Shown piece by piece: positions 1,962 through 12,980 of a DNA stretch of 20,000 nucleotides. How positions within the stretch are numbered: position 1 is the stretch's first letter; every line of letters begins with the position of its first letter. A model generated the notes under the pieces. That model was not told the DNA's origin, ran no database searches, and worked only from the letters and a program-made list of their open reading frames with translations. This stretch comes from an uncultured virus (IMG/VR IMGVR_UViG_2585427945_000001) (Duplodnaviria > Heunggongvirae > Uroviricota > Caudoviricetes). The DNA lies in the IMG/VR virus record IMGVR_UViG_2585427945_000001; one strand, given 5' to 3'. Both the position numbers and the translations under genes were made by a program.

Positions 1962-2242
1962 TCGCCGTCACCGCCAGTCTCCTCGTCACCCCCACCGTCC
2001 TCACCGGGCTCCGGGTCCTCGTCGGGGTTGGGTACCGGCTCCACATCGTCGGGGTTCGGCACCGGCTCGTCGCGCAGGTCGGGGTTGCCCGCCCCGCCGG
2101 AACCGTCGCCGTCACCGAACCCGTCGTTGTCTCCGAGCATCCACCCCGGGGAGTACCCCCAGCCCGGCGCGACCGGCGGGTCCGGCTCCGGGGGCCCCGC
2201 GTCGTACACGGGCGATACATCGGGCTCAACTGGGGTACCCAT
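1958..2242 (-). CDS. 94-aa acidic, Pro/Gly-rich hypothetical protein
   Basis: ATG at 2242 overlaps the TMP stop (TGATG), and its own stop overlaps the next ATG (ATGA). It fills the gap exactly. Sequence MGTPVEPDVSPVYDAG...GGDGE, the 3' part of track ORF 1958..2491. Confidence 0.7.
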   Translation of the reverse strand: MGTPVEPDVSPVYDAGPPEPDPPVAPGWGYSPGWMLGDNDGFGDGDGSGGAGNPDLRDEPVPNPDDVEPVPNPDEDPEPGEDGGGDEETGGDGE

Positions 2243-5200
2243 CAGGTCCACCGTCCTGTCTCTAGATCTGCTGCCACGTTGTTGTCGTGCACGACGATTT
2301 CCGTCCGCACGATGTCCTCGATCTCTCGGTCCCCGACGAAGACCCTGACGTCCGCCTGGAGCGTCGTCGGACTGGAGCCACCCGCGGACATACCGTTCGT
2401 CGCGCGGGCGATGGCCATGGAATCGGAGTTCGAGTGGACTCGCGTCGGGGTGAGGAACTCCAGCAGTTCCGGCCCCCGCTCCCCGACCCACGCCGTCTCA
2501 CCGAGGCCCGGGAAGCCGCCTGCCGCGTACCCGCCGGGACGGTTGTACGCCTTCGGAAGCGACCCGTACGCGGCCTTCGCGTAGCGCATCGAGGAGAAGA
2601 TGTTGGCCAGCGGGTTGGTCGAGACCCCGTACAGCTTGGGTCCGACGCCCTGCATCTGGCCGGCGTAGGCGTCGAAGGTCGGCCGGATGACCTGCATGAG
2701 GCCGACCGACGGGTGGCCCGCCTGCCAGTTGGAGTCCCAGCGGTTGACAACGTTCGGGTCACCGCCGGACTCCTGCTGCATGCGGCGCAGCGTCAGGTCC
2801 GCGTACGACGCCGGGTTGCCCGTCATCTTGAGGGCCTGCTGCACCGTGCCACGCCAGCGGTTGACGCTCTTGCCGCCACCGCCCCCGGCGCTGCTCAGGT
2901 ACGGCATGGGGTCCACCGTCTTGCCACCGACTCGCGCCTCCAGGTGGAGGTGAGGGCCGGTGACGTTGCCGGTGGCGCCAACCTGTCCGATGACCTCGCC
3001 CTGCCGGACGCTCTTGCCGAGCGTGGCAACGAGGGAGGACATGTGGGCGTAGAGGGACGAGAGCCCACCACCGTGCGCGACCGTGGCGTGTACACCGTAC
3101 GGTCCGCTGCTCCCCGTCGATGCCACCTTGCCGTCGGCCACGGCGCGAATCGCGGTACCCACGGCCGCCGGGAAGTCGAGCCCGGTGTGATGCCCGGAGG
3201 ACCACATCTTGCCCGCGACGCCGAAGCGAGTGCCGTACGGGGCGTTCACGGGCTTGATCCACTGCCCGCTGCCGCCCCCGTCCCCTCCACTGAAGACCTC
3301 GATCGCCTTGTCCTTCAAGGAGTTCAGCACCTTGCCGGGGATCTTGGCGACGGATTTCGACCACGGGTCCGTCAGATACGGCTTCAACTGGCCCGCGATG
3401 TAGTCCTTCGCCTTGCCGAAGATCGCCGTCGGGTCCATGAAGTCGCCGATGCCGGATATGAAGCTGCCGACGTCGTTCGCCTTGTCCTTGAACCAGCCGA
3501 CGATGCCACCGTTCTTGTAGGCCGGCATACCGCCCGCAATCGCCTTCTGAACGCCGCCGACGCCGCCTGAACGAGCAGCGGCATTCCACGCGTTGATCCG
3601 GTCGGCTCCGATTGCCCGGGTCCACTCGGGACGCATGACAGCCTCACCGCCGCCCACGGCGATGACTCGGTCATCACGGCCCGGGGAGTAGCCGGACATG
3701 ATGCCACCCGTGTGGAAGCCCTCAAGGTTCAGCTTCTTCAGCGGGTCGGCGCCTGTGACCTTGGAGACCGCATTCCACAACGGCACGATTCCGCCGTTGT
3801 ACACGTGCTCCATAATGAAACGCACAGGCTTCTTGGCGATATCCTCGACCTTGTCCCAGGCCCGTTTGATCGAGTCCTTGGCGTCGTTGAAGGAATCCGC
3901 CACGGCACTAACGGCCTTCTTGATTCCGTCGAATGCCGGCTTCAGGGCCTTGTCGTAAAGCCAAGTCGCCTTGTCCGCGATCCAGCCGAAGACTGGAGAA
4001 AGCACCTTGTCCCAGAGCCACTTACCGGCGTCGCCCAGCGCCTCGAACTTCTTCTTGGCGTCGTCCATGGCGGGCTTGATGGCCTTGTCGTAAAGCCATC
4101 CTGCCTTGTCGCCGATCCACTGGAAGGCAGGCCGGAGTGCCTTCTCCCACAGCCACGTGGCACCGGCTCCGATGCCACGGAAGGCAGGGCCAAGTGCCTT
4201 GTCCCACAGCCACATCCCGATAGCACCGAGCGCCTTGATAGCGAGCCAGACCGGGAGGAGCAGGAGGGTGATCAGGACTGTGATCAGGATCTGAGCAGCG
4301 TCCGCGATGAAGCTGAAAGCGGGTCGGAGCGCCTTCTCCCACAGCCAGACGGCTGCGGAGCCCACCGCCTGCATCCCCGCCCATATGCCGTCGAATGCCG
4401 GCTTGAGGCCGTTGTCCCAGATCCAGATTGCCGCCGTCTTGATGGCACCTGCGACGGTGTCCACCGCGACGCGGAACCAGTCCCAGTTCTTGTAAGCGTA
4501 GACAACGGCTGCGACGAGAAGGCCGACCACGAGAATGATGGCCCGGATGATGGGGACAATTCCCGTCGCGCTCAATGCCACCGCCCAACCGCTTGTGGCG
4601 ATGGTGGCGACAATCATGACCGACTCGTACAGCACCATAGCGCCTGCGAAAGCGGTCATGCCGAGCGCTATAGCCTTCTGGGCGAAATAGAGCAGCCATA
4701 GCGTCTGAATGAACTCTGGGCAGTTCGTCGCCAGCCACGATATGGCACCGAAGAGCGGGCCCAGAACGTCGAACATCGCCGTCGACAACGGGGAAAGAGC
4801 TTTCGCGGTGTCCAATGCGGCGCGCATGATGTCGCCCAGGAACTCCGCCAGACCAGGTGACGTGTCCTTGACGTACGCGAGGAACCGTTCAAAGTCCGGG
4901 GACCCCTTCAGGCTCGCACCCCACTTGGCGAATCGGCCGGTGATGCGGTCGGAATGCCTGACGATCCCTTCCATGTGCGGGAGGAACGCGTCGATCATCC
5001 CCGTAATGCCCTTGAGGACGTTGCCGAACGCCCGGCCGAACCCCTCAACGGCAGGCTGGACGTTGCCTCGCAAATCCTCCTTGAAGGACACCCAGAAAGG
5101 CTCCTTCATTTCCGCCGACGCACTGTCCTGGAGGGACTCGATCCCCTTCGCAGCACCGAGCGCCAGAGGCGTCAGGCCGGGCAATGTGTTCTTCGCGCTG

Positions 5201-7407
5201 TCCACCCCGCGGGTAAACAGGGGGAGCACGTCGGGCTGGAGAGCGAGGGACCATTCCTTGAACGCCTCGGTCAGCCCTCGCGGGCCGGCGATGGAGTCGT
5301 ACAACGCCCGCTGGGGCGGTGTGAGGTCCGCAAGCGCCTTACGGTACTCGTCAGCCTTGGAGATCGCCTGGACCGTGGTGTCGATCGAGGAGAGCCGGGC
5401 GGACTGCACCGAGCGTTCGGCGGACGCGATGGACTCCGCGGCAGACACTTGTGCGTCGGCAGCCGACTGAACGGCGTCAGCGACCCCTCGTTGGGCGTCG
5501 GCCACAGACTGAGCGGACTCCCGCGGGGAGCGGGCCGCCTTCGACTGGGCGTCGGCCACGGCCATGGCGGCTTCCCGGACCGCCCTCTGAGCGTCGGCCA
5601 GGCCCTCGGTCTGGTCCCGCACCCGCCGCTGTGCGTCAGCCAGTCGGTCGGCTGCTGTGGTGACGGCGTCGGACCCCTCCACGCCGGCCTTACGCATCTT
5701 GCGCGCCTCGGCCTGGAGGTCCGTGTAGCTCTGCTTCTGCTTCTTCTGGCTCTGGATCGCCTGGTCGTAGGCAAGCTGAGCCTTGTCGAAGTCAGTCTGA
5801 CTCATCAGACCGGCGTCGTACCGACCCGTCGCCCGCTGGAGTTCCTCGCGGGCCTCGGTCACCCGCAGCGCTGCCTCACGCTGGTTGAGGGCACCGTCGG
5901 TGAGGCGGTCGTTCAGGTCCTTCAGCGCACGTTCGGCGTCCTTGCGGGCCCGGGTGAGGCCCTCCTCCGCCTCCAGGGCGTTCTGGTTGGCGTCGGTGAG
6001 ACCCTCCTGCGCGTTCCGCACCCGACGATGGGAGTCCACGAGGGACTGCTCAGCACGCTTGATGTCCTCGGCCGACTGCTTGCGCTGGTCCGCTGACCGC
6101 TGAACGGCCTGCTGGACGGCCCGCTCTGCGTCGGCCACCTGACGAGAGGCGGATGCGATGGACCGGGCGGCGTTTCGGTGGGCGGTTGCGAGCGTCGCTT
6201 GTGCGCCAGCCATCTGAAGGGCCCGCTGCGCTGCCTGCTGGTTGACCTTCGCGCTGTTGTCGGTGGCAGTCGTCGCCTCCTTCTCAGCGGCGGTCTTCGC
6301 CTGCATCACCTCCATCACATCCATGACGGCCGGGATGGCGACGAGGGCCACTGCACCGATGCCACCTGCGGCTGCCGTCGCCATGGCGGCTACGGCACCG
6401 AGACCCGCGGCAAGTACGGGCCCGAGGGGGATGGCGGCCAGGACCGCAGCCTGAATCGTCAGGCCCAGCAGGGCACTTGAGGCCCCGGACGTGTCAGCCA
6501 GGGCCTTGATGCGGAAGATCTTGGTGTCGTCCGCCATGGCCTGTAGAGCGGCGAGCTGGGCTGCGGCCCGCTGGGCGTCCACCCGGACGTCGATGTCATG
6601 CCGCTGCACGCTCAGGATCGCGAGGCGCTCTTGCAGATGGTTGATCTTCGCAAGTGCCTCGGTGGCGCTGATGTCGATCCCGATGCGCTTGTCCGACAGC
6701 TCGGTGAGCTGCGCACGAATGCCCTGGATCTGCGCGCGGGCCGGCGATGTGTCGGCGTCGACGTTGATCTCGGGAAGGGATGCCTGCGCCTCCTTGACGG
6801 CCGCACGCATGCGGGCGCCCAGGGTCCCGTCAGTCTCGAACCGGATGTGGCCGGGCCGAGCAGTCAGGAGCGCGATCTCCTCCCGGATCTCCGCCAGAGC
6901 CGCGCGAGCTGTGGCGGTGTCGGCCCGTACCGCGATGTTCGGATGAGCAGCCCCCAGCCGACGGAGCTGCTCCTCCAGCCGCGTGACCTCCGCCTCCGCG
7001 GCTTCAGCGGATACGTCGATACCCACGCGCTTGTTGGAGAGCTGTTCCAGCTTGGCCCGGATGCGGGCGAGCTGGGCGTCTACACCCTCGTCGCTGAGCT
7101 TGACGTCCAGCTTCGGCATGGCCTTGAAGGCCGCTTCGAGCTTCCTCCGGATGCTGCGCGCGAAGGCGCCACCCGCGTCGTCACCCTGCTTGCCCGCTAC
7201 GCGAACACCCACTCGACCACCGTTGACGATGGCGTCGGGGATGGCGATGACGATATTCTTCGATATCGCCTCCCCCATCCGCTTACCGGCGTCCTCGCCG
7301 ACCCTGTCCGCGATGGGAAGAACCATCGCCTTCAGCTTGGTGTGGAACTGGGGGATCACGGGGACGACGTCGACCGCCGCACCACCGACGATGTCAAGGT
7401 CCGGCAC
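2242..7407 (-). CDS. Tape measure protein with C-terminal M23 peptidase and lytic transglycosylase (SLT) domains
   Basis: 1721 aa with Ala-rich coiled-coil segments, hydrophobic stretches and periodic Trp repeats (WLW[ED]KAL.PAF). M23 motifs HTGLDF, YAHMS and GPHLHLE; SLT motifs QQESGGDP and GLMQV. Follows the tail assembly chaperones. Confidence 0.93.
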   Translation of the reverse strand: MPDLDIVGGAAVDVVPVIPQFHTKLKAMVLPIADRVGEDAGKRMGEAISKNIVIAIPDAIVNGGRVGVRVAGKQGDDAGGAFARSIRRKLEAAFKAMPKLDVKLSDEGVDAQLARIRAKLEQLSNKRVGIDVSAEAAEAEVTRLEEQLRRLGAAHPNIAVRADTATARAALAEIREEIALLTARPGHIRFETDGTLGARMRAAVKEAQASLPEINVDADTSPARAQIQGIRAQLTELSDKRIGIDISATEALAKINHLQERLAILSVQRHDIDVRVDAQRAAAQLAALQAMADDTKIFRIKALADTSGASSALLGLTIQAAVLAAIPLGPVLAAGLGAVAAMATAAAGGIGAVALVAIPAVMDVMEVMQAKTAAEKEATTATDNSAKVNQQAAQRALQMAGAQATLATAHRNAARSIASASRQVADAERAVQQAVQRSADQRKQSAEDIKRAEQSLVDSHRRVRNAQEGLTDANQNALEAEEGLTRARKDAERALKDLNDRLTDGALNQREAALRVTEAREELQRATGRYDAGLMSQTDFDKAQLAYDQAIQSQKKQKQSYTDLQAEARKMRKAGVEGSDAVTTAADRLADAQRRVRDQTEGLADAQRAVREAAMAVADAQSKAARSPRESAQSVADAQRGVADAVQSAADAQVSAAESIASAERSVQSARLSSIDTTVQAISKADEYRKALADLTPPQRALYDSIAGPRGLTEAFKEWSLALQPDVLPLFTRGVDSAKNTLPGLTPLALGAAKGIESLQDSASAEMKEPFWVSFKEDLRGNVQPAVEGFGRAFGNVLKGITGMIDAFLPHMEGIVRHSDRITGRFAKWGASLKGSPDFERFLAYVKDTSPGLAEFLGDIMRAALDTAKALSPLSTAMFDVLGPLFGAISWLATNCPEFIQTLWLLYFAQKAIALGMTAFAGAMVLYESVMIVATIATSGWAVALSATGIVPIIRAIILVVGLLVAAVVYAYKNWDWFRVAVDTVAGAIKTAAIWIWDNGLKPAFDGIWAGMQAVGSAAVWLWEKALRPAFSFIADAAQILITVLITLLLLPVWLAIKALGAIGMWLWDKALGPAFRGIGAGATWLWEKALRPAFQWIGDKAGWLYDKAIKPAMDDAKKKFEALGDAGKWLWDKVLSPVFGWIADKATWLYDKALKPAFDGIKKAVSAVADSFNDAKDSIKRAWDKVEDIAKKPVRFIMEHVYNGGIVPLWNAVSKVTGADPLKKLNLEGFHTGGIMSGYSPGRDDRVIAVGGGEAVMRPEWTRAIGADRINAWNAAARSGGVGGVQKAIAGGMPAYKNGGIVGWFKDKANDVGSFISGIGDFMDPTAIFGKAKDYIAGQLKPYLTDPWSKSVAKIPGKVLNSLKDKAIEVFSGGDGGGSGQWIKPVNAPYGTRFGVAGKMWSSGHHTGLDFPAAVGTAIRAVADGKVASTGSSGPYGVHATVAHGGGLSSLYAHMSSLVATLGKSVRQGEVIGQVGATGNVTGPHLHLEARVGGKTVDPMPYLSSAGGGGGKSVNRWRGTVQQALKMTGNPASYADLTLRRMQQESGGDPNVVNRWDSNWQAGHPSVGLMQVIRPTFDAYAGQMQGVGPKLYGVSTNPLANIFSSMRYAKAAYGSLPKAYNRPGGYAAGGFPGLGETAWVGERGPELLEFLTPTRVHSNSDSMAIARATNGMSAGGSSPTTLQADVRVFVGDREIEDIVRTEIVVHDNNVAADLETGRWT

Positions 7408-7865
7408 TACGCCTCCTTTGGCTGGTTCCGCAGACGCGGGTCAAGCGCGCGGCGCTGGTCGTCCGTCATCCCCTTCCGGGGCGTGACGTTGGGGGGGATT
7501 CCGGGGCGTGACGTCGGCGTGAATTCGGGAGGCTTACCGCCGGCGGCTGCGATGGCCACGGAGCGGCTGAGTACGATCTCGTCCCGCAGCTCCGCGAGGA
7601 AGATCTCGACACGGCTCCACGGAGCCAGGTCGGGGCGGTACTCGGTACGAGCCCGCTCCATCTGCTCCGGCGTCACCGCGTTACGCATCTCCGTCTTCGT
7701 CGACGACTCCTGCGGGAGCTTCTCGATCCAGATGCGGAGGGTGCGGAGGGAGACACCCCCGCGGTACACGTCCAGGAGCCTGGCTCCGGGGTAGTACCGC
7801 GGGATGTCAGCCTCTAGCGCTTCCGCGTGCTCTTCGAGGACTTGGCACGTCCAGAGGACTTTCCC
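7407..7865 (-). CDS. Tail assembly chaperone, C-terminal (gpT-like) part reached by -1 frameshift
   Basis: The -1 frame is open from the slippery site (GKVLWTCQVLEEHAEALEADIPRYYPGARLLDVYRGGVSLR...) into track ORF 7407..7769. Its stop overlaps the TMP GTG start (TAGTG). Confidence 0.82.
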   Translation of the reverse strand, partial: GKVLWTCQVLEEHAEALEADIPRYYPGARLLDVYRGGVSLRTLRIWIEKLPQESSTKTEMRNAVTPEQMERARTEYRPDLAPWSRVEIFLAELRDEIVLSRSVAIAAAGGKPPEFTPTSRPGIPPNVTPRKGMTDDQRRALDPRLRNQPKEA

Positions 7866-8134
7866 GGGGCCTCCCCGGTGGACTCCATGGCGGCCGACGT
7901 GAAGTCGTTGATCTCGTCGAAGGTCGGGTCCAGGTCGATGAACGACTGGACGTCGTCCTCATGCAGGACGCCAGCCGCCCACGCGTCGTAGTCGCCGTTC
8001 CGGAGAGCACGGAGGTACGAGGGCCGCCACTTGTTGCCGGGCTTGATCCGCAGCTCAGCGCCACAGAGCGTCGCCGTGCCGTACTCCTCGTTCGCCTCGT
8101 TCTCCTGGGCGTCGGCAGGGGTGATGTCAGTCAT
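7814..8134 (-). CDS. Tail assembly chaperone (gpG-like)
   Basis: 106-aa acidic ORF between the major tail and TMP genes, with an AGGAG RBS and a G GGA AAG site near its end. Confidence 0.85.
   Translation of the reverse strand: MTDITPADAQENEANEEYGTATLCGAELRIKPGNKWRPSYLRALRNGDYDAWAAGVLHEDDVQSFIDLDPTFDEINDFTSAAMESTGEAPGKSSGRAKSSKSTRKR
7859..7865 (-). other. -1 ribosomal frameshift site G GGA AAG
   Basis: CCG GGA AAG in the gpG frame, the same heptamer as the lambda G-T frameshift. Confidence 0.85.
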
Positions 8135-8190: not shown

Positions 8191-8227
8191 AGCGACGCCC
8201 CGGACCCGCGCGGAACGGGGCGTCGCT
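8191..8227 (-). terminator. 12-bp perfect stem-loop downstream of the major tail gene (terminator/attenuator or mRNA stabiliser)
   Basis: agcgacgccccg (8191-8202) and cggggcgtcgct (8216-8227) with a 13-nt loop. No strong U-tract. Confidence 0.5.
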
Positions 8228-8235
8228 GGTCAGTA

Positions 8236-8294
8236 GGTGCGGCCTAGCCCAGGTCGAGGGCCACGGTTCCCGGCGACACCGTCAGGGAGAAGGG
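8236..8294 (-). other. Putative -1 frameshift cassette extending the major tail protein by one Ig beta-strand (...LTVSPGTVALDLG*)
   Basis: C CCT TCT CCC TGA followed 7 nt after the heptamer by stem GGUGUCGCC...GGCCGCACC. The -1 frame ends at TAG 8246-8244. The 31 nt at 8264-8294 match 10955-10985 with one mismatch. Confidence 0.7.
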
Positions 8295-8890
8295 GTGTCA
8301 CCCTCCGCCTCGAAGAAGCCCGAAACGTCTACGCCGCCGTAGTCGATCGAGCGCCTCACAGCACTGGAGTTACCGGCACCCTTGTAGAACTTGAACGTCA
8401 TCTGCACGTTCATGACGTCACTCGTCTGCGGCTGTTCGTCGCCACGCTCGACGACCTTCCCGTTCGGCATGTAGAGCCGCATCCGCTTGTCACCGTCCAG
8501 GGTGTCGAAGACGAATGCGTACCGAAGGTCAGCCGGCTTGTCGGGGAGGGAGTACGTCACGATGTCCTCGGTGGGCTCCAGGGAGGCCACGGGCACGTTG
8601 TCGTACAGGGCCCGGACAAGCGGGGACAGGCCCTCCAGGAAGGTGACCTGCGTGCTCTTGACGCTCTTCGTCATGAGCGTGCGGATGGGCTCCAGAGAAC
8701 CTGCCGCATCGACGTCCTTGGACTCCTCCTCAATCTTGAAGAGGCCGCCGTCGGTCGTCACCCAACCCATGTTCATCCACGGGGTGGCCGGGTCGGCGAA
8801 GTCGACCGGCATCACGGTGTTGATCGGCGCCGCGTACACGAGATAGTCACTTGCGCCGAACGTCAGATCGGCATTGCGGGTGTCCGCCAT
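8282..8890 (-). CDS. Major tail (tube) protein
   Basis: 202 aa with a GGAGG RBS. Motifs WMNMGWVTTDG and LRYAFVFDTLDGDKRMRLYMPNGKVVERGD are typical of actinophage tail tube proteins. Precedes the tail assembly chaperones. Confidence 0.88.
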   Translation of the reverse strand: MADTRNADLTFGASDYLVYAAPINTVMPVDFADPATPWMNMGWVTTDGGLFKIEEESKDVDAAGSLEPIRTLMTKSVKSTQVTFLEGLSPLVRALYDNVPVASLEPTEDIVTYSLPDKPADLRYAFVFDTLDGDKRMRLYMPNGKVVERGDEQPQTSDVMNVQMTFKFYKGAGNSSAVRRSIDYGGVDVSGFFEAEGDTPSP

Positions 8891-8915
8891 GAATGCCTCC
8901 AGGGCATGCGTAGGG

Positions 8916-8939
8916 GCTCCGTGAGTCGACTCACGGAGC
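8916..8939. repeat. 24-bp perfect palindrome upstream of the major tail gene
   Basis: gctccgtgagtc|gactcacggagc. Confidence 0.85.
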
Positions 8940-8953
8940 TAGGTAGTCGGGGG

Positions 8954-9325
8954 TTACGCGGCCCGGAGGCTCACGGTGTACGTGGCGCCACGTCGGTGGA
9001 CTGCCTCGTTGGCCCAGGGCTGGCGCGTGGGGCCGGACATGCAGCGGACGGAGCGGATGACGGCGCCGGGAACCGGGCCTGTGAGGAAGACGAGCGCCTC
9101 GCGTACCTCGTTAGCCAGGCTTCGCGCCTCATCCGCCGTGGCTGCGAACACGTCGACGGCCACGGCGGGGGTCTGCCCGAAGCGACCGTCCGCGCCGGCG
9201 ACGCGCTCCACGCGGATCATGGGGAGTGCGTCCTCCAGGTCCGCAGGGGTCTCGGCCGCGCAGAAGACGCCGAAGCGGCCCTCCAGCCACGGGGCGAGGA
9301 CGGCCTCCACGTCAGCCATTGGCAT
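8954..9325 (-). CDS. Tail terminator / tail completion protein
   Basis: 123 aa (LPMIRVERVAG...VAVDVFA...ATYTVSLR), immediately upstream of the major tail gene. The start could be 9325 or 9319. Confidence 0.72.
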   Translation of the reverse strand: MPMADVEAVLAPWLEGRFGVFCAAETPADLEDALPMIRVERVAGADGRFGQTPAVAVDVFAATADEARSLANEVREALVFLTGPVPGAVIRSVRCMSGPTRQPWANEAVHRRGATYTVSLRAA

Positions 9326-9674
9326 GCTCCGCCAGGGCCGCCATGTACGCCTTGGTCAGCGGGGCGTACCGCGGGATGTTCCAGTTGCCGTACTCCACCG
9401 CCTTGGCGTGGGGAGCGGTGTTCACCACCATGGCTCCGTGCCGCATCCGGGGCTTACCGCGGAACGGGATGTTTCTGAACACCGGCTCGACGCTGAAGCT
9501 GGCCTTGTACAGGCCGGGGTGCCTGTCCTCGGCAGGGTCGCCCACCGGGGAGAAGCCCTCCGCGGAATGCATGATCCGCACCGCTGCGTCGCGGCACGGC
9601 TTGCCCATCCACGGGCGACTGACCATGCGGCCAAGGCCGCTGTACTTACCGACGTACTTGGAGCGGTACGTCAT
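9312..9674 (-). CDS. HK97 gp10-like neck/tail-completion protein
   Basis: ATG at 9674 has an ATGA overlap with the upstream stop. MTYRSKYVG...GLYKASF...VVNTAPHAKAVEYGN resembles the gp10-family motif. The track ORF start at 10115 is over-extended. Confidence 0.72.
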   Translation of the reverse strand: MTYRSKYVGKYSGLGRMVSRPWMGKPCRDAAVRIMHSAEGFSPVGDPAEDRHPGLYKASFSVEPVFRNIPFRGKPRMRHGAMVVNTAPHAKAVEYGNWNIPRYAPLTKAYMAALAEHANG

Positions 9675-10030
9675 CCGGTCACCTCCTTCAAGGCGGCTTC
9701 TACGCGAGCAAGGGACGTCAGGGGAAGGACGAGCGGGCGGCCGATGACCTCCCACGCCTCGGCCCCGTCCTCGCTGACGATGCGGTCCGCTGGGCGAACG
9801 TCGGTGCCTAGAGGAGCAGCGAACACTCTCCGGGTGATCACGGTCTCGCTGGCGTCGTGCTCCTCCGTCGAGGAGCCCACGGTCACGCCGTACGGGCTCA
9901 TCACGGCGCAGTGGTCGACGCGGATGCGGATCTTGGGGCCGGGCACCCAGGACCCCGTAGAGTCCCGGACCCGCTCCCCGGCCCGCTCGATGTACCACGT
10001 CTGCGACAGCACGTTGGCGATGAGGCTCAT
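9671..10030 (-). CDS. Head-to-tail stopper (head closure) protein
   Basis: ATG at 10030 (ATGA overlap). RDSTG...VFAAPLGTDVRPADRI...WEVIGRP is typical of stopper proteins. Confidence 0.75.
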   Translation of the reverse strand: MSLIANVLSQTWYIERAGERVRDSTGSWVPGPKIRIRVDHCAVMSPYGVTVGSSTEEHDASETVITRRVFAAPLGTDVRPADRIVSEDGAEAWEVIGRPLVLPLTSLARVEAALKEVTG

Positions 10031-10404
10031 ACCGGCCGCCACACGGTGACCGGCGGGACGTAGTCCGCGGGGGCGATGTCGAGCATGCCGGCGCCTGTGG
10101 GCATCCCGACTGCACGACGAAGCCGTCGAAGCTCGTCGTCGGAGAGGACGACGCCCGTCTGTGAGTCTGCGTAGGACTGGAGCATGCCGCCCGCCTGCTC
10201 GGTCCTGAGCCCCTGGGGGTTCGTCAGGATCCGAGCGGCGACGGACAGGGCCACCGTCTTGATGCCGCGCTGCGGGGGCTCGGTGATCCGGTCCCCCACC
10301 TCACCGAGGATGGCGTCTTCAGCCAGGTCGTGGGCGAGCTGGGCGCGCTCCTCGGTGAGCGGGGTGCCCAGGAGGGCCCGCAGCTCAGCCAGGCTGAACA
10401 GCAT
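10027..10404 (-). CDS. Head-to-tail adaptor protein
   Basis: MLFSLAELRALLG...VAARILTNPQGLRTEQAGGMLQSY...LSDDELRRL is a Gp19/Gp15-like adaptor pattern. Real start at 10404 rather than 10575. Confidence 0.78.
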   Translation of the reverse strand: MLFSLAELRALLGTPLTEERAQLAHDLAEDAILGEVGDRITEPPQRGIKTVALSVAARILTNPQGLRTEQAGGMLQSYADSQTGVVLSDDELRRLRRAVGMPTGAGMLDIAPADYVPPVTVWRPV

Positions 10405-10627
10405 CGCCGCCCCCCGTCTTCCGGCGAGGAGAGGCCCGTTTGACGGGGGCTGCTCTCTTCGCCGGCGGCGCCACGTGTGCCGACTTACGTGGAGCCGGCG
10501 CGATCTCCCACGCCTTCGAGTTGGTGATGAGCGCCTGTGCCCACTCGGGCACATCGTCGCCGGGGCCGAACACATGGGCGCGACCCTGGGCGTCTGTCAG
10601 GTGTACGTTCGTCCGGAGTCGCGCCAT
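10385..10627 (-). CDS. Small post-capsid hypothetical protein with basic C-terminal tail
   Basis: 80 aa, VHLTDAQGRAHVFGPGDDVPEWAQALITN; tightly packed between its neighbours. Confidence 0.75.
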   Translation of the reverse strand: MARLRTNVHLTDAQGRAHVFGPGDDVPEWAQALITNSKAWEIAPAPRKSAHVAPPAKRAAPVKRASPRRKTGGGDAVQPG

Positions 10628-10628
10628 G

Positions 10629-10892
10629 TCAGCTCACCGTCAGTTCAGCGGTGGACGGGCTCACGGCGAGCGACTCCGGGTCGTCGGTGACGGTCACGGT
10701 GCACGTTCCGCTCTTACCCTGCGCCGTCGCAGTGATCACGGCAGTACCCGCGGACACCGCTGTCACGAGGCCACCTGCCGAGACCGTGGCCACTGCCGGG
10801 GTGGCACTGGTCCACGCGGCTGTGCTGGTCACGGTCTGCTTCGCACCGCTGGTCAGGGTAAGTTCCGCGGCGAGCTGCTGGGTCTTAGCCAT
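10629..10892 (-). CDS. Circularly permuted Big_2-like Ig-domain protein
   Basis: GAGG RBS. WTSATPAVATVSAGGLVTAVSAGTAVITAT...GTCTVTV is the Big_2 core. The strand normally at the N-terminus (SLAVSPSTAELTV) is at the C-terminus. Confidence 0.85.
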   Translation of the reverse strand: MAKTQQLAAELTLTSGAKQTVTSTAAWTSATPAVATVSAGGLVTAVSAGTAVITATAQGKSGTCTVTVTDDPESLAVSPSTAELTVS

Positions 10893-10925
10893 TCATCCTC
10901 GTCTGTCGTCGTCGGGTTGGTCACA

Positions 10926-10985
10926 GGTGCCGCCTCAGCCCGTGGTCAGGGCTGCGGTTCCCGGCGACACCGTCAGGAAGAAGGG
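10926..10985 (-). other. Putative -1 frameshift cassette extending the major capsid protein by one Ig beta-strand (...LTVSPGTAALTTG*)
   Basis: C CCT TCT TCC TGA followed 7 nt after the heptamer by a 9-bp stem GGUGUCGCC/GGCGGCACC enclosing CAGCCC/GGGCUG. The -1 frame ends at TGA 10937-10935. Confidence 0.7.
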
Positions 10986-12010
10986 TCGTCAAGCACCGTT
11001 GCACGGAGGGTGAGGTCCGGGGCGGCCACGACCGGGAGGGCGATGGTGGTCGCGCGAGTCCACACGGTCTGTGGGTCCTCCGACTTGTAGCCGCCGACGG
11101 CGATACCTGCGGCGTCGCCGGCCAGGCCGTACCGCGGGTCGTTCGCCTCAACCGGCACACCCCACAGGGTTTTACCGGCGGCGTCGCCCTGCTCGGGCAG
11201 GAAGAGGAGCTGGTCCTCAGGAGTGATTCGCGTGGCGACTCCGTCCACATTCACCTGCGCGTCGTAGATCTCGACCGGCGGGATTCCGAAGGAGGCCAGT
11301 ACCGCGTTGACACTCGCTTCGGTGATCAGGCCGGGAGCCACGGCGGAGCCCGCGAACGCCAGGTCGCGCACCTGCTTGTTCCGCATCAGCAGGTTGTACA
11401 CCGTCAGCGACATCAGCGTCGCTGCTGGACGGTGCCCGTTGGTGCGGTTGTACACCGCCACCCACGCGCGAAGGTTGTCGATCGCCTTCGCGTTCTCGGT
11501 GTCGTCCCACGCCACCGACGCGGTAACCGAGTGGGCCGCCGAACGGCCGAAGTCTACGGACGCCTGGACGCCGTTCTCGTTCAGCGTGACGGCCCCAGTG
11601 AACAGCGCCTCGCCCCGGGCAAGCTCTATGCGCGCCGCGAGCTGAGCGACGAGCTTGACAGAGTCCGACTCCATGGCGTCACGGATATCGGCGTTCTGGG
11701 TGTCGACGTTCCGCATCTTGATCTGGTCGTACTCAGAGACGGGCATCTTCCTGCTGATGGGCGGCAGTTCGCCGCTCACCCGAGACCCGCCAGGCCGGTA
11801 CGCGATGTCCGACTCGGCGTCGAAGGCACGGAACCTCGCCGCCTCTACGAGGCCGCCCCCGCCTCGGCTGAAGCGAAACATCAGGTCGTTGATGGTCTCG
11901 TTGGGGAGCCACCGGTTCAGGTTGAGCGCGTTCTCCTCGCGGAACCGGAGCGCCTCGCGGGCGTAACCGGTGAGTTCCGCAGGAGTCGCGTACTCAGTGA
12001 TGAGCTGCAT
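10973..12010 (-). CDS. Major capsid protein (lambda gpE / Phage_cap_E-like)
   Basis: 345 aa; GELPPISRK, RIELARGEALFTG, VDFGR and EDPQTVWTRATTIALPV motifs. Follows the scaffold and decoration genes. Confidence 0.92.
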   Translation of the reverse strand: MQLITEYATPAELTGYAREALRFREENALNLNRWLPNETINDLMFRFSRGGGGLVEAARFRAFDAESDIAYRPGGSRVSGELPPISRKMPVSEYDQIKMRNVDTQNADIRDAMESDSVKLVAQLAARIELARGEALFTGAVTLNENGVQASVDFGRSAAHSVTASVAWDDTENAKAIDNLRAWVAVYNRTNGHRPAATLMSLTVYNLLMRNKQVRDLAFAGSAVAPGLITEASVNAVLASFGIPPVEIYDAQVNVDGVATRITPEDQLLFLPEQGDAAGKTLWGVPVEANDPRYGLAGDAAGIAVGGYKSEDPQTVWTRATTIALPVVAAPDLTLRATVLDDPSS

Positions 12011-12023
12011 GTATCAGGGCCTC

Positions 12024-12419
12024 TCAGACGAAGATGATGCGGCCGGCGACATCCGCCTTGCCGTTGGCGTCGACGGGGACAGGGAGCTTCGCCTCACGGA
12101 TGAAGCAGTGGATGAGCATCGAGCCCACGACCGAGGTGGACGCGACCCCGCGGGCGTCGACGTCCTGAGCGGTGAAGAGGAAGCCCACGAGGGTCTGCCG
12201 ACCGTCGCTCGCGGCGTCGTCGTACGGGCCGTACTTCCCGCCGGTCGTCACCTTGCCGAGCGGGATGCCGCTCTTGATGTAGCCGTCCGGGTAGTGGGTG
12301 GCCTTCGTGAACTTCGAGATGTCCAGGGTGACCGAGACAGGGGCGTCAGTGCCGTGGGCGCTGCCGAGCCAGTCACGGCGGTCCTGGGTGAAGCTCTCAA
12401 CCTTGAGGTTGAGGTCCAT
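12024..12419 (-). CDS. Head decoration protein (lambda gpD-like)
   Basis: 131 aa; YPDGYIKSGIPLGKVTTGGKYGPYD...DGRQTLVGFLF; GGAGG RBS; located between scaffold and capsid. Confidence 0.85.
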   Translation of the reverse strand: MDLNLKVESFTQDRRDWLGSAHGTDAPVSVTLDISKFTKATHYPDGYIKSGIPLGKVTTGGKYGPYDDAASDGRQTLVGFLFTAQDVDARGVASTSVVGSMLIHCFIREAKLPVPVDANGKADVAGRIIFV

Positions 12420-12443: not shown

Positions 12444-12980
12444 TTACTTGCCGTGCTTCTGCCGGAAGCGCTCAGCTCCGGTCGCGACCGACGAGCCTCC
12501 GCCGACGTCGGATCCGCGGTCTCCGCCAACCCGGTAGGTTCCGGTGGCGCCCGTGGGAGCGAAGTCCTTCAGCAGCGCGTCTGCGTCCGCCTCCAGCTCC
12601 TCCTTCGTGGAGCCCTGGAGACGCGCGGCCTGCGTGGTGGTGAGGCTCTTCGCGATGGCGACTTCGAGAAGCAGCGCCCTACGGACCGCTGCGTCGGCCT
12701 CCGCGCGAGCGGTAGCGGCGGCTGCCTCTGCGGTCGCCTTCTCGGCCTGGACCCGCTCGGTCTCGGTGAGGTCGGCCGCCTGGCGCCTCTTCAGCTCCTC
12801 GTCGGCCTGGCGCAGTCGCTCCAGCTCCGTGGCGTCCGGGGCGGCCTTCGAGGCTGCCTCATGCTTGCGGGCGTGGTGCTTCCAGTACGCCACCTGGTGT
12901 TCGGGCGTCATGTCGGCCGTCGGCGTGTTGTCCGGGTAGCCGTGCTCGTTGACGGTCGGGAGGTTCTCAGGCTCAGGCAT
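12444..12980 (-). CDS. Scaffolding protein
   Basis: 178 aa, coiled-coil; YWKHHARKHE and RLQGSTKEELEADADALL motifs of actinophage scaffolds. Confidence 0.85.
   Translation of the reverse strand: MPEPENLPTVNEHGYPDNTPTADMTPEHQVAYWKHHARKHEAASKAAPDATELERLRQADEELKRRQAADLTETERVQAEKATAEAAAATARAEADAAVRRALLLEVAIAKSLTTTQAARLQGSTKEELEADADALLKDFAPTGATGTYRVGGDRGSDVGGGSSVATGAERFRQKHGK

Follow-up and report, generated by a model that had tools for sequence, protein, structure and literature searches.

A split Big_2 immunoglobulin-like domain as a probable natural tag and catcher on the capsid and tail tube of a Streptomyces-type phage

The 20,000-nucleotide (nt) stretch of DNA analysed here (hereafter the window), from the uncultured virus IMG/VR IMGVR_UViG_2585427945_000001 (Caudoviricetes), carries an immunoglobulin-like (Ig) domain of the Big_2 family whose parts are encoded at separate places. 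The first strands of the domain, A and A', are encoded by short cassettes in the -1 frames at the 3' ends of the major capsid and major tail (tail tube) genes, and the remaining strands by a separate open reading frame (ORF) of 87 amino acids (aa). This split Big_2 domain probably acts as a natural tag and catcher that decorates both the capsid and the tail tube. We infer that the tags are added by ribosomal frameshifting, that the Ig protein docks on them in trans and that the completed domains have a function at the virion surface.

The major capsid protein gene (10973..12010, minus strand, as are all features of the window given below) encodes a 345-aa Phage_cap_E protein (Pfam E 5e-33) with the C-terminus ...TVLDDPSS*, and the major tail gene (8282..8890) encodes a 202-aa Phage_TTP_17 protein (Pfam E 3.1e-13) ending in ...EAEGDTPSP*. 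The 3' end of the capsid gene reads GAC GAC CCT TCT TCC TGA (stop at 10975-10973) and that of the tail gene GAC ACC CCT TCT CCC TGA (stop at 8284-8282). Both genes possess the heptamer C_CCT_TCT, a putative -1 slip site (10979..10985 in the capsid gene and 8288..8294 in the same cassette of the tail gene), with the zero-frame stop two codons on and a hairpin starting 7 nt downstream. Read from the CCC at 10985, the capsid -1 frame gives P FF LTVSPGTAALTTG before a TGA stop at 10937-10935, while the tail -1 frame from 8294 gives P FS LTVSPGTVALDLG before a TAG stop at 8246-8244, both following the pattern P-F(F/S)-LTVSPGT(A/V)AL(TT/DL)G and then a stop. The predicted tags are 15 residues long, FFLTVSPGTAALTTG for the capsid (P-FFLTVSPGTAALTTG plus TGA, 10935..10985) and FSLTVSPGTVALDLG for the tail (P-FSLTVSPGTVALDLG plus TAG, 8244..8294), and correspond to strands A/A' of Big_2; the capsid tag aligned with strand A of uninterrupted homologues and was modelled by AlphaFold2 (AF2) as strands E4-8 and E11-16. 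The two cassettes have CCCTTCT[T/C]CCTGACGGTGTCGCCGGGAACCG in common, with 30/31 nt identical. In the capsid -1 tag frame, 14/17 codons (stop counted) end in G or C, compared with 8/14 in the spacer that follows. The heptamer would let the P-site tRNA re-pair exactly (CCU to CCC) beside a rare codon, as the next zero-frame codon, TCT, is presumably rare in a high-GC host. The +1 frame past the stops was also considered and rejected, as it translates to non-Ig peptides such as LLPDGVAGNR...

The Ig ORF, the proposed catcher (10629..10892), starts with MAKTQQL at strand B of Big_2. It scored 35.9 bits against Big_2 (PF02368; gathering cut-off 22.8), with residues 3-67 aligned to profile positions 18-78 of 79, and 38.1 against Big-like PF22359 (27). 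As the profile coverage is confined to positions 18-78, strand A is missing from the ORF, which is not a complete one-polypeptide Big_2 domain: the missing strand is encoded in the capsid and tail -1 frames. In a phmmer search of 1.84 billion representatives, the result of which was dominated by giant tandem Big_2 proteins and is informative only for register-shifted repeat alignment, residues ~3-84/86 aligned in one contiguous stretch with tandem Big_2 arrays, indicating that the Ig ORF equals a repeat unit shifted by one strand. Its C-terminal tail there lines up without a break with the following repeat (query stretches 2-84/86). A sequence search of the PDB returned teneurin-like Big_2 repeats only.

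The Ig ORF has the C-terminus DDPESLAVSPSTAELTVS*, and its last part, DDPES-LAVSPSTAELTVS (10632..10685), is a third strand-A-like segment with the same structural end position as the tags. A first, sequence-only reading of this DNA had placed the three C-termini in exact register, and this was borne out, with 13 residues from L to the stop in the capsid tag, the tail tag and the Ig ORF. The residues it gave ahead of that point, xF in the capsid and xS in the tail, needed correction, since a slip at C_CCT would make them FF and FS. Between the capsid tag stop and the Ig start codon lies a spacer (10893..10934) containing the 3' hairpin arm, a Shine-Dalgarno sequence (GAGGA, 10896-10900) and a second in-frame TGA abutting the ATG.

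Among loci with related capsids this arrangement is rare. The capsid protein query retrieved 21 genome loci and 46 viral loci, making 68 loci together with Streptomyces phage Samy. In 67 of these (Samy counted), the capsid gene ends in ...ADV(L/I)* and is immediately followed by the connector gene, with neither tag nor Ig ORF. The sole exception, L027, has a capsid 80% identical to that of the window, the cassette FSLTVSPGTAALTLG*, two in-frame TGA codons and a Shine-Dalgarno sequence as in the window, and an 89-aa Ig ORF with the C-terminus ...LMTVTPGTADLDLTEA. The strand motif at gene ends is beyond chance, as a regular expression for it, run in six frames over the 68 loci, gave a gene-end match only in L027, with off-target matches elsewhere in 7 loci. 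The L027 tail gene ends in FFPEEG* without a cassette, so that, relative to this closest relative, the tail tag of the window sits in an insertion of ~52 nt exactly before the stop. Between the window and L027, the slip site and 5' stem arm are identical at 35/36 nt, compared with 810/1020 for the capsid gene and 166/207 for the Ig core. The Ig core, with 28 synonymous and 6 non-synonymous codon differences, is under purifying selection. In the spacer, the hairpin arm and Shine-Dalgarno sequence are conserved between the two, while the middle differs.

Among cultured phages, tblastn of the read-through protein gave no match at E 1e-5, while tblastn of the Ig ORF alone (E up to 1) matched Thermobifida phage P318 (L130). 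After its capsid gene, P318 encodes orf22, an 88-aa 'Ig-like domain-containing protein' that starts with MAATQQL and ends in ...INVEPSSAELELEE*. The P318 capsid gene ends with GAC CCA AAT TCA CCC TGA, and its -1 frame via C_CCA_AAT gives PKFTLTVTPDSVSLELGS; the tail gene ends with GTC CCT TCT CCC TAA, and its -1 frame gives PFSLTVSPATVELSF. The P318 tail gene was also the sole meaningful match when the cassette itself was searched by blastn against cultured phages. Its cassette (7396-7418), CCCTTCTCCCTAACGGTGTCGCC, is one base off that of the window; the P318 genome is reported to have 54.6% G+C, and the DNA around the window cassette is visibly more GC-rich. The near-identity of the two cassettes points to either nucleotide-level constraint or recent cassette transfer. 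Neither tags nor an Ig gene were present in Samy or in Ibantik, whose capsid is nearest to that of P318 among cultured phages.

When viral contigs were scanned with a cassette pattern, 10 hits were obtained. Three (L131, L137 and L139) were set aside as unrelated ORFs, and the others were the L027 contig, L132, L133, L134, L135, L136 and L140; a stricter first pattern had matched only the L027 contig among viral contigs, and a pattern for the P318 capsid cassette matched only the L135 contig. L135 is close to P318 and possesses both tags and the Ig ORF. L133, with a capsid 74% identical to that of P318, has a tail tag only, an untagged capsid gene and an Ig ORF (2711-2932) that lacks the C-terminal strand, ending in VTVVDDGV*. 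In L136, a Phage_cap_E capsid 45% identical to that of the window and a tail protein are both tagged, and the Ig gene is placed after the tail gene, the tagged capsid gene having none beside it. The capsid of L134 and L140 is of the HK97 type, its tag being lengthened by a basic tail, and the tail of their Ig ORF mirrors the tag up to LDSPG. In these two (L134:3285-3392 and L140:5001-5108), the capsid tag passes the A'-B turn and carries ~20 extra residues with a basic end (...STRKRK*).

Altogether, tag cassettes and a strand-A-less Ig ORF (MA.TQQL or MAVSEQL) occurred together in the window, L027, L136, P318, L135, L133, L134 and L140, that is, beyond the window, in seven further sequences of five lineages. 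Co-occurrence in relatives, proposed beforehand as a check, is found in these seven, with both parts missing from 67 of the 68 related-capsid loci. The tags occur on capsids of three families (Phage_cap_E, Phage_capsid_4/Gp10A-like and HK97-type) and on tail tubes of the TTP_17 family. The heptamer C_CCT_TCT was identical at 11 tag sites on 8 contigs, and the capsid genes of P318 and L135 have the canonical C_CCA_AAT in its place. Among 7 complete split Ig ORFs that were compared, 6 carry the C-terminal tail and that of L133 does not; an eighth (L140) is cut by the contig end. Every split Ig ORF compared has its own Shine-Dalgarno sequence and an ATG exactly at strand B.

This joint distribution bears on a rival explanation, in which the Ig protein decorates the virion or mediates adhesion in the ordinary way, attaching through another surface, and the extensions or hairpins serve other roles, such as the control of translation or of mRNA stability. 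The module already shows classical docking through a lambda gpD-like gene for head decoration (12024-12419; HDPD, E 5.9e-08), and mRNA can be influenced by stable hairpins at the ends of genes. Such a protein would, however, fail to explain why 12 tags encode exactly the strand missing from the Ig ORF and end at the split point, and it would leave unexplained both the joint gain and loss of tags and split ORFs and the tags without an Ig gene nearby (the window tail, the P318 tail and the L136 capsid). Ordinary decoration is accordingly regarded as unlikely.

The frame relations among the relatives largely refute another possibility, a covalent capsid-Ig fusion made by frameshifting followed by read-through of both TGA codons or a hop across them. 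In the window, L027, L136 (tail gene) and L134, one frame does contain both the tag and the Ig ORF, and the context GGC TGA GGC could permit a hop, but their frames differ in P318, L135 and L140. Two stops would have to be passed, no Ig ORF lies downstream of the window and P318 tail tags or of the L136 capsid tag, and each Ig ORF has its own ribosome-binding site, which together make a fusion product barely credible.

The short -1 ORFs end after 15-18 residues at the A'-B turn (35 residues in L134 and L140), far from encompassing a whole Ig domain. The only continuation into one was found in L132 (4769-5023, minus strand of the locus), where a TTP_16 tail gene ends in VVPSP* at the same CCCTTCTCCCTGAC slip site and the -1 frame stays open for 85 residues, encoding a whole Big_2 domain without interruption. 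In the alignment to L132, the last tag residue is the G before 'ATTEL' and the first residues of the split ORFs are '(M)A.T(Q/E)QL', without overlap or gap; as the end of the tag and the start of the ORF meet exactly, the two pieces sum to one domain. The earlier placement of the Ig start where strand A would end agrees with this split point as well as with the Pfam coverage. The whole-domain form of L132 is likely the ancestral form of the split system, which probably arose from a whole frameshift-appended Ig domain by the insertion of a stop and a Shine-Dalgarno-ATG unit exactly at the A'-B turn.

The existence of this whole-domain version with the same slip site also allows the cassettes to be seen as decaying remnants of a whole frameshift-appended Ig domain, with tags that are not made or have no role, and phage genes are on record as undergoing non-homologous shuffling of their Ig domains (PMC5009743). 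Remnants would not be expected, however, to retain intact tags with the same structural stop across lineages whose Ig cores are only ~50% identical, nor to conserve the slip site and stem at the nucleotide level against a background divergence of ~20%. The fresh gain of a tag in the window tail gene and the Shine-Dalgarno sequence and ATG at strand B of every split ORF also stand against decay, and this explanation appears highly improbable.

The capsid hairpin (10926..10971) begins 7 nt after the heptamer, with a folding free energy (dG) of -27.2 kcal/mol and a z of -2.9; its 5' arm, GGUGUCGCC, lies within the tag codons, and its 3' arm, GGCGGCACC, right behind the tag stop. The tail hairpin (8236..8280), whose outer stem contains one C-C mismatch, is a weaker copy of it (dG -20.5 kcal/mol, z -0.5). 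In 10/10 short-tag cassettes the hairpin begins 7 nt after the heptamer and the outer stem is kept, with the 5' arm in the T-V-S-P codons and the 3' arm just past the tag stop. This position lies within the 5-9 nt downstream at which the stimulatory RNA structure of programmed -1 frameshifting is expected. The nine cassettes folded with shuffle controls ranged from -17.6 to -36.8 kcal/mol, with z between -0.5 (window tail) and -7.3 (P318 capsid), and at both P318 sites 0/200 shuffles were as stable; the two L135 hairpin copies were folded without shuffle controls. In the stem alignment of nine copies, 88.9% of cells were paired, compared with 34-71% when the partner was slid, and compensatory changes on both sides were found at two stem positions. 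RNA folds including the slip site were unremarkable (z -1.2, 0.0 and -1.15), only the downstream segment being informative. The suggestion that strands are added to capsid and tail by frameshifting finds comparative support in the conservation of slip site, hairpin and intact -1 ORF in five further lineages, and in L132.

The contiguous -1 frame was modelled as a single chain with AF2, with the two TGA codons read as W. In this read-through model, the tag forms the strands given above, the core has a predicted local distance difference test (pLDDT) of 85-88, and the linker and C-terminal tail are disordered. Aligned from residue 1, the model matched the Big_2 domain of LigA with a Z of 15.2 and a root-mean-square deviation of 1.6 A over 87 residues, and it matched residues 296-382 of the mycobacteriophage Douge capsid with a Z of 13.7 and the Douge tail tube with a Z of 12.3, both at 42% identity. 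Modelled alone, the Ig ORF had a mean pLDDT of 59 and a Z of 7.0 over residues 2-70; a core pLDDT of 85-88 was reached only with the tag present.

In the ORF-alone model, the C-terminal tail forms strands E74-78 and E81-85 at pLDDT 54-55, which would fit a self-cap rather than a donor strand. As a self-cap, it would occupy its own groove or close a dimer until displaced by a tag, so that each tag would dock one Ig protein. Besides these two strands, the tail-less Ig ORF of L133 fits such a role, as it coexists with a tail tag and the tail is therefore dispensable for docking, and an unbounded polymer would have no obvious length control. The pLDDT of the capping strands is just 54-55, however, and the tail is disordered in the read-through model, where strand A is supplied. 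Strand G is followed by a linker of only 4-7 residues and, given Ig topology, strand A starts opposite the end of G, which would make insertion in cis sterically hard. The tail moreover mimics the tags to the same end point, and further in L134 (LDSPG in both). Self-capping combined with docking is held to be possible but rather doubtful.

Published data on P318 are relevant to docking of the Ig protein on tags. In virions purified by gel filtration, ORF22 was detected by liquid chromatography-tandem mass spectrometry with 18% coverage, compared with 47% for the capsid and 31% for the tail protein (PMC6893835). Neither Ig-like domains nor frameshifting come up in that paper. The presence of this homologue in virions joins the co-occurrence, the exact split point and the cis AF2 model in favouring the earlier idea that the appended strand completes a strand-A-less Ig protein.

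Several observations weigh against the proposed tag and catcher. The heptamer C_CCT_TCT departs from the canonical X_XXY_YYZ, the window tail hairpin has no stability beyond that of shuffles, and the stem covariation is modest, with its score reached by 37/500 shuffles. The AF2 read-through is a cis construct whose alignment included homologues with a contiguous strand A; pLDDT exceeded 60 in only 2/5 models, with 67 and 49 for the tag strands, and the ORF-alone model makes self-capping possible. The system is also rare and unevenly kept: L027 has no tail-gene tag and L133 neither a capsid tag nor an Ig tail, of the 80 best Ig relatives among viral contigs only 5 are split (75 are whole), two metagenome scans gave 0 hits, and 0/401 genomes of the genus Streptomyces matched. 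Finally, the P318 virion preparations included nucleotide-metabolism enzymes (PMC6893835), so that presence in virions is no proof of specific docking, and the mass-spectrometry database comprised predicted ORFs only (PMC6893835), which makes trans-frame peptides undetectable there.

With these points taken into account, the split-domain system could work as follows. Most ribosomes would terminate the capsid and tail-tube proteins at the zero-frame stop, while a minority, stalled by the hairpin 7 nt downstream, would slip one base back at C_CCT_TCT and add the 15 residues of strands A/A'. The 87-aa Ig protein would be made from its own Shine-Dalgarno sequence and ATG with all strands but A/A', and its fold is consequently incomplete, as the profile match shows at the level of sequence and the AF2 models support. 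It would then dock non-covalently on tagged subunits, taking the tag as its missing edge strands, and head and tail would thereby both display Ig domains supplied by one small gene. If Douge is a guide, the displayed domains would probably give weak adhesion to host cell-wall glycans, since the Ig-like domains on Douge's capsid and tail were found experimentally to bind mycobacterial surface glycans (PMC13033339).

The strand-A-like C-terminal tail of the Ig protein could either prime the next copy, giving short chains, or cap the groove until a tag displaces it. The short linker of 4-7 residues and the mimicry of the tags by the tail favour donation in trans. A bolder form of the proposal, in which tags prime chaperone-free donor-strand complementation between copies of the Ig protein, so that one 87-codon gene would yield non-covalent, head-to-tail Ig fibres of variable length on head and tail as a general, overlooked route of phage decoration, is put forward tentatively. 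Given the tail-less Ig ORF of L133, chain growth would at most be optional and not universal.

The window as a whole is a module of late structural genes, encoded on the minus strand, from a siphophage or prophage of Streptomyces type. Its closest cultured relative is Samy, with 74% nucleotide identity over 85% of the region. The gene order is terminase, portal, protease, scaffold (12444-12980), gpD-like decoration gene, major capsid and Ig ORF, followed by connector genes, the major tail gene, two tail assembly chaperone ORFs and the tape measure gene. Docking of the Ig protein would give the head a second kind of decoration beside that from the gpD-like gene. Between the tail and chaperone genes, a GC-rich hairpin, AGCGACGCCCCG...CGGGGCGTCGCT (8191-8227), lacks a clear T-run after it, and its sequence recurs 3' of the tail gene in most of L001-L068 ('RGPYLRGSGPR'-type translations). 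The first tail assembly chaperone ORF (7814-8134) possesses, near its end and in the correct phase, a canonical G_GGA_AAG (7859-7865), from which the -1 frame continues into the ORF at 7407-7769, the usual G/GT-type chaperone frameshift. The C-terminal part of the 1721-aa tape measure protein (2242-7407) contains motifs that presumably represent an M23-type peptidase (HHTGLDF...GPHLHLE) and a lytic transglycosylase.

If true, the completion of a split domain by a strand present only on frameshifted subunits would add a third route for attaching proteins to a virion, beside covalent fusion and docking on the surface. It would account for the decoration of two unrelated structural proteins by a single small gene, with the dose set by frameshift efficiency, and would give short -1 extensions without apparent function a testable role. 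The pair would also be a natural, genetically encoded peptide tag and catcher for phage display, and the system is testable in the cultured, non-pathogenic phage P318, where the Ig protein is already known in virions. In the literature searched, a 2020 review of decoration proteins included, no split-Ig or strand-complementation decoration on phages was found.

Among known systems, SPP1 gp17.1* carries an Ig-like domain appended by frameshifting, and the window would be alike in placing a C-terminal, Ig-related extension on a minority of capsid or tail subunits by programmed shifting at the 3' end of the gene. The addition of Ig-like domains to phage coat and tail proteins through frameshifting is established, with examples in the T3 coat protein, Lactobacillus phage A2 and Listeria phages A118, A500 and PSA, the Listeria phages shifting in the coat gene as well as in the tail gene (Atkins et al. 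2016, PMC5009743). L132 matches these whole-Ig systems, starting from the slip site of the window. In the window itself, by contrast, the predicted extension comprises only strands A/A' (15 residues), and the remainder of the domain comes from another gene with an independent start, so that attachment must be non-covalent and one gene would serve both head and tail. The closest solved relatives are the Douge gp8 capsid and gp13 tail tube (PDB 8ZDH and 8ZDJ; PMC13033339), which likewise have Ig domains on head and tail; these domains, however, are whole and fused in frame, without a split, a separate Ig gene or a frameshift. The module of the window comprises genes for phage head, connector and tail only, with neither a periplasmic chaperone nor an outer-membrane usher of the chaperone-usher type, so that the system is a possible mechanistic analogue of that family and not a member of it; the comparison with chaperone-usher pili drawn in the sequence-only reading holds to this extent.

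In chaperone-usher pili, an Ig-like subunit lacking an edge strand is completed by a strand of another polypeptide. Archaeal cannulae provide a case of donor-strand polymerisation without a chaperone (bioRxiv 10.1101/2024.12.30.630787). The common idea would be an incomplete Ig-like subunit with a donor strand elsewhere, and a donor-bearing subunit could in principle polymerise. The missing strand in pili is the C-terminal G and the donor is N-terminal, whereas here the N-terminal A/A' are missing and the donor is C-terminal. Unlike pili, the window system has no chaperone, usher or secretion, its primers would be made by ribosomal frameshifting on virion proteins, and its polymerisation is only proposed. 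SpyTag/SpyCatcher is an engineered split of the CnaB2 Ig-like domain, locked by an isopeptide bond. The pair in the window, by contrast, is natural, belongs to the Big_2 family and has no sign of covalent chemistry; the likeness lies in the principle that a peptide tag on one protein would complete a truncated Ig-like domain on another.

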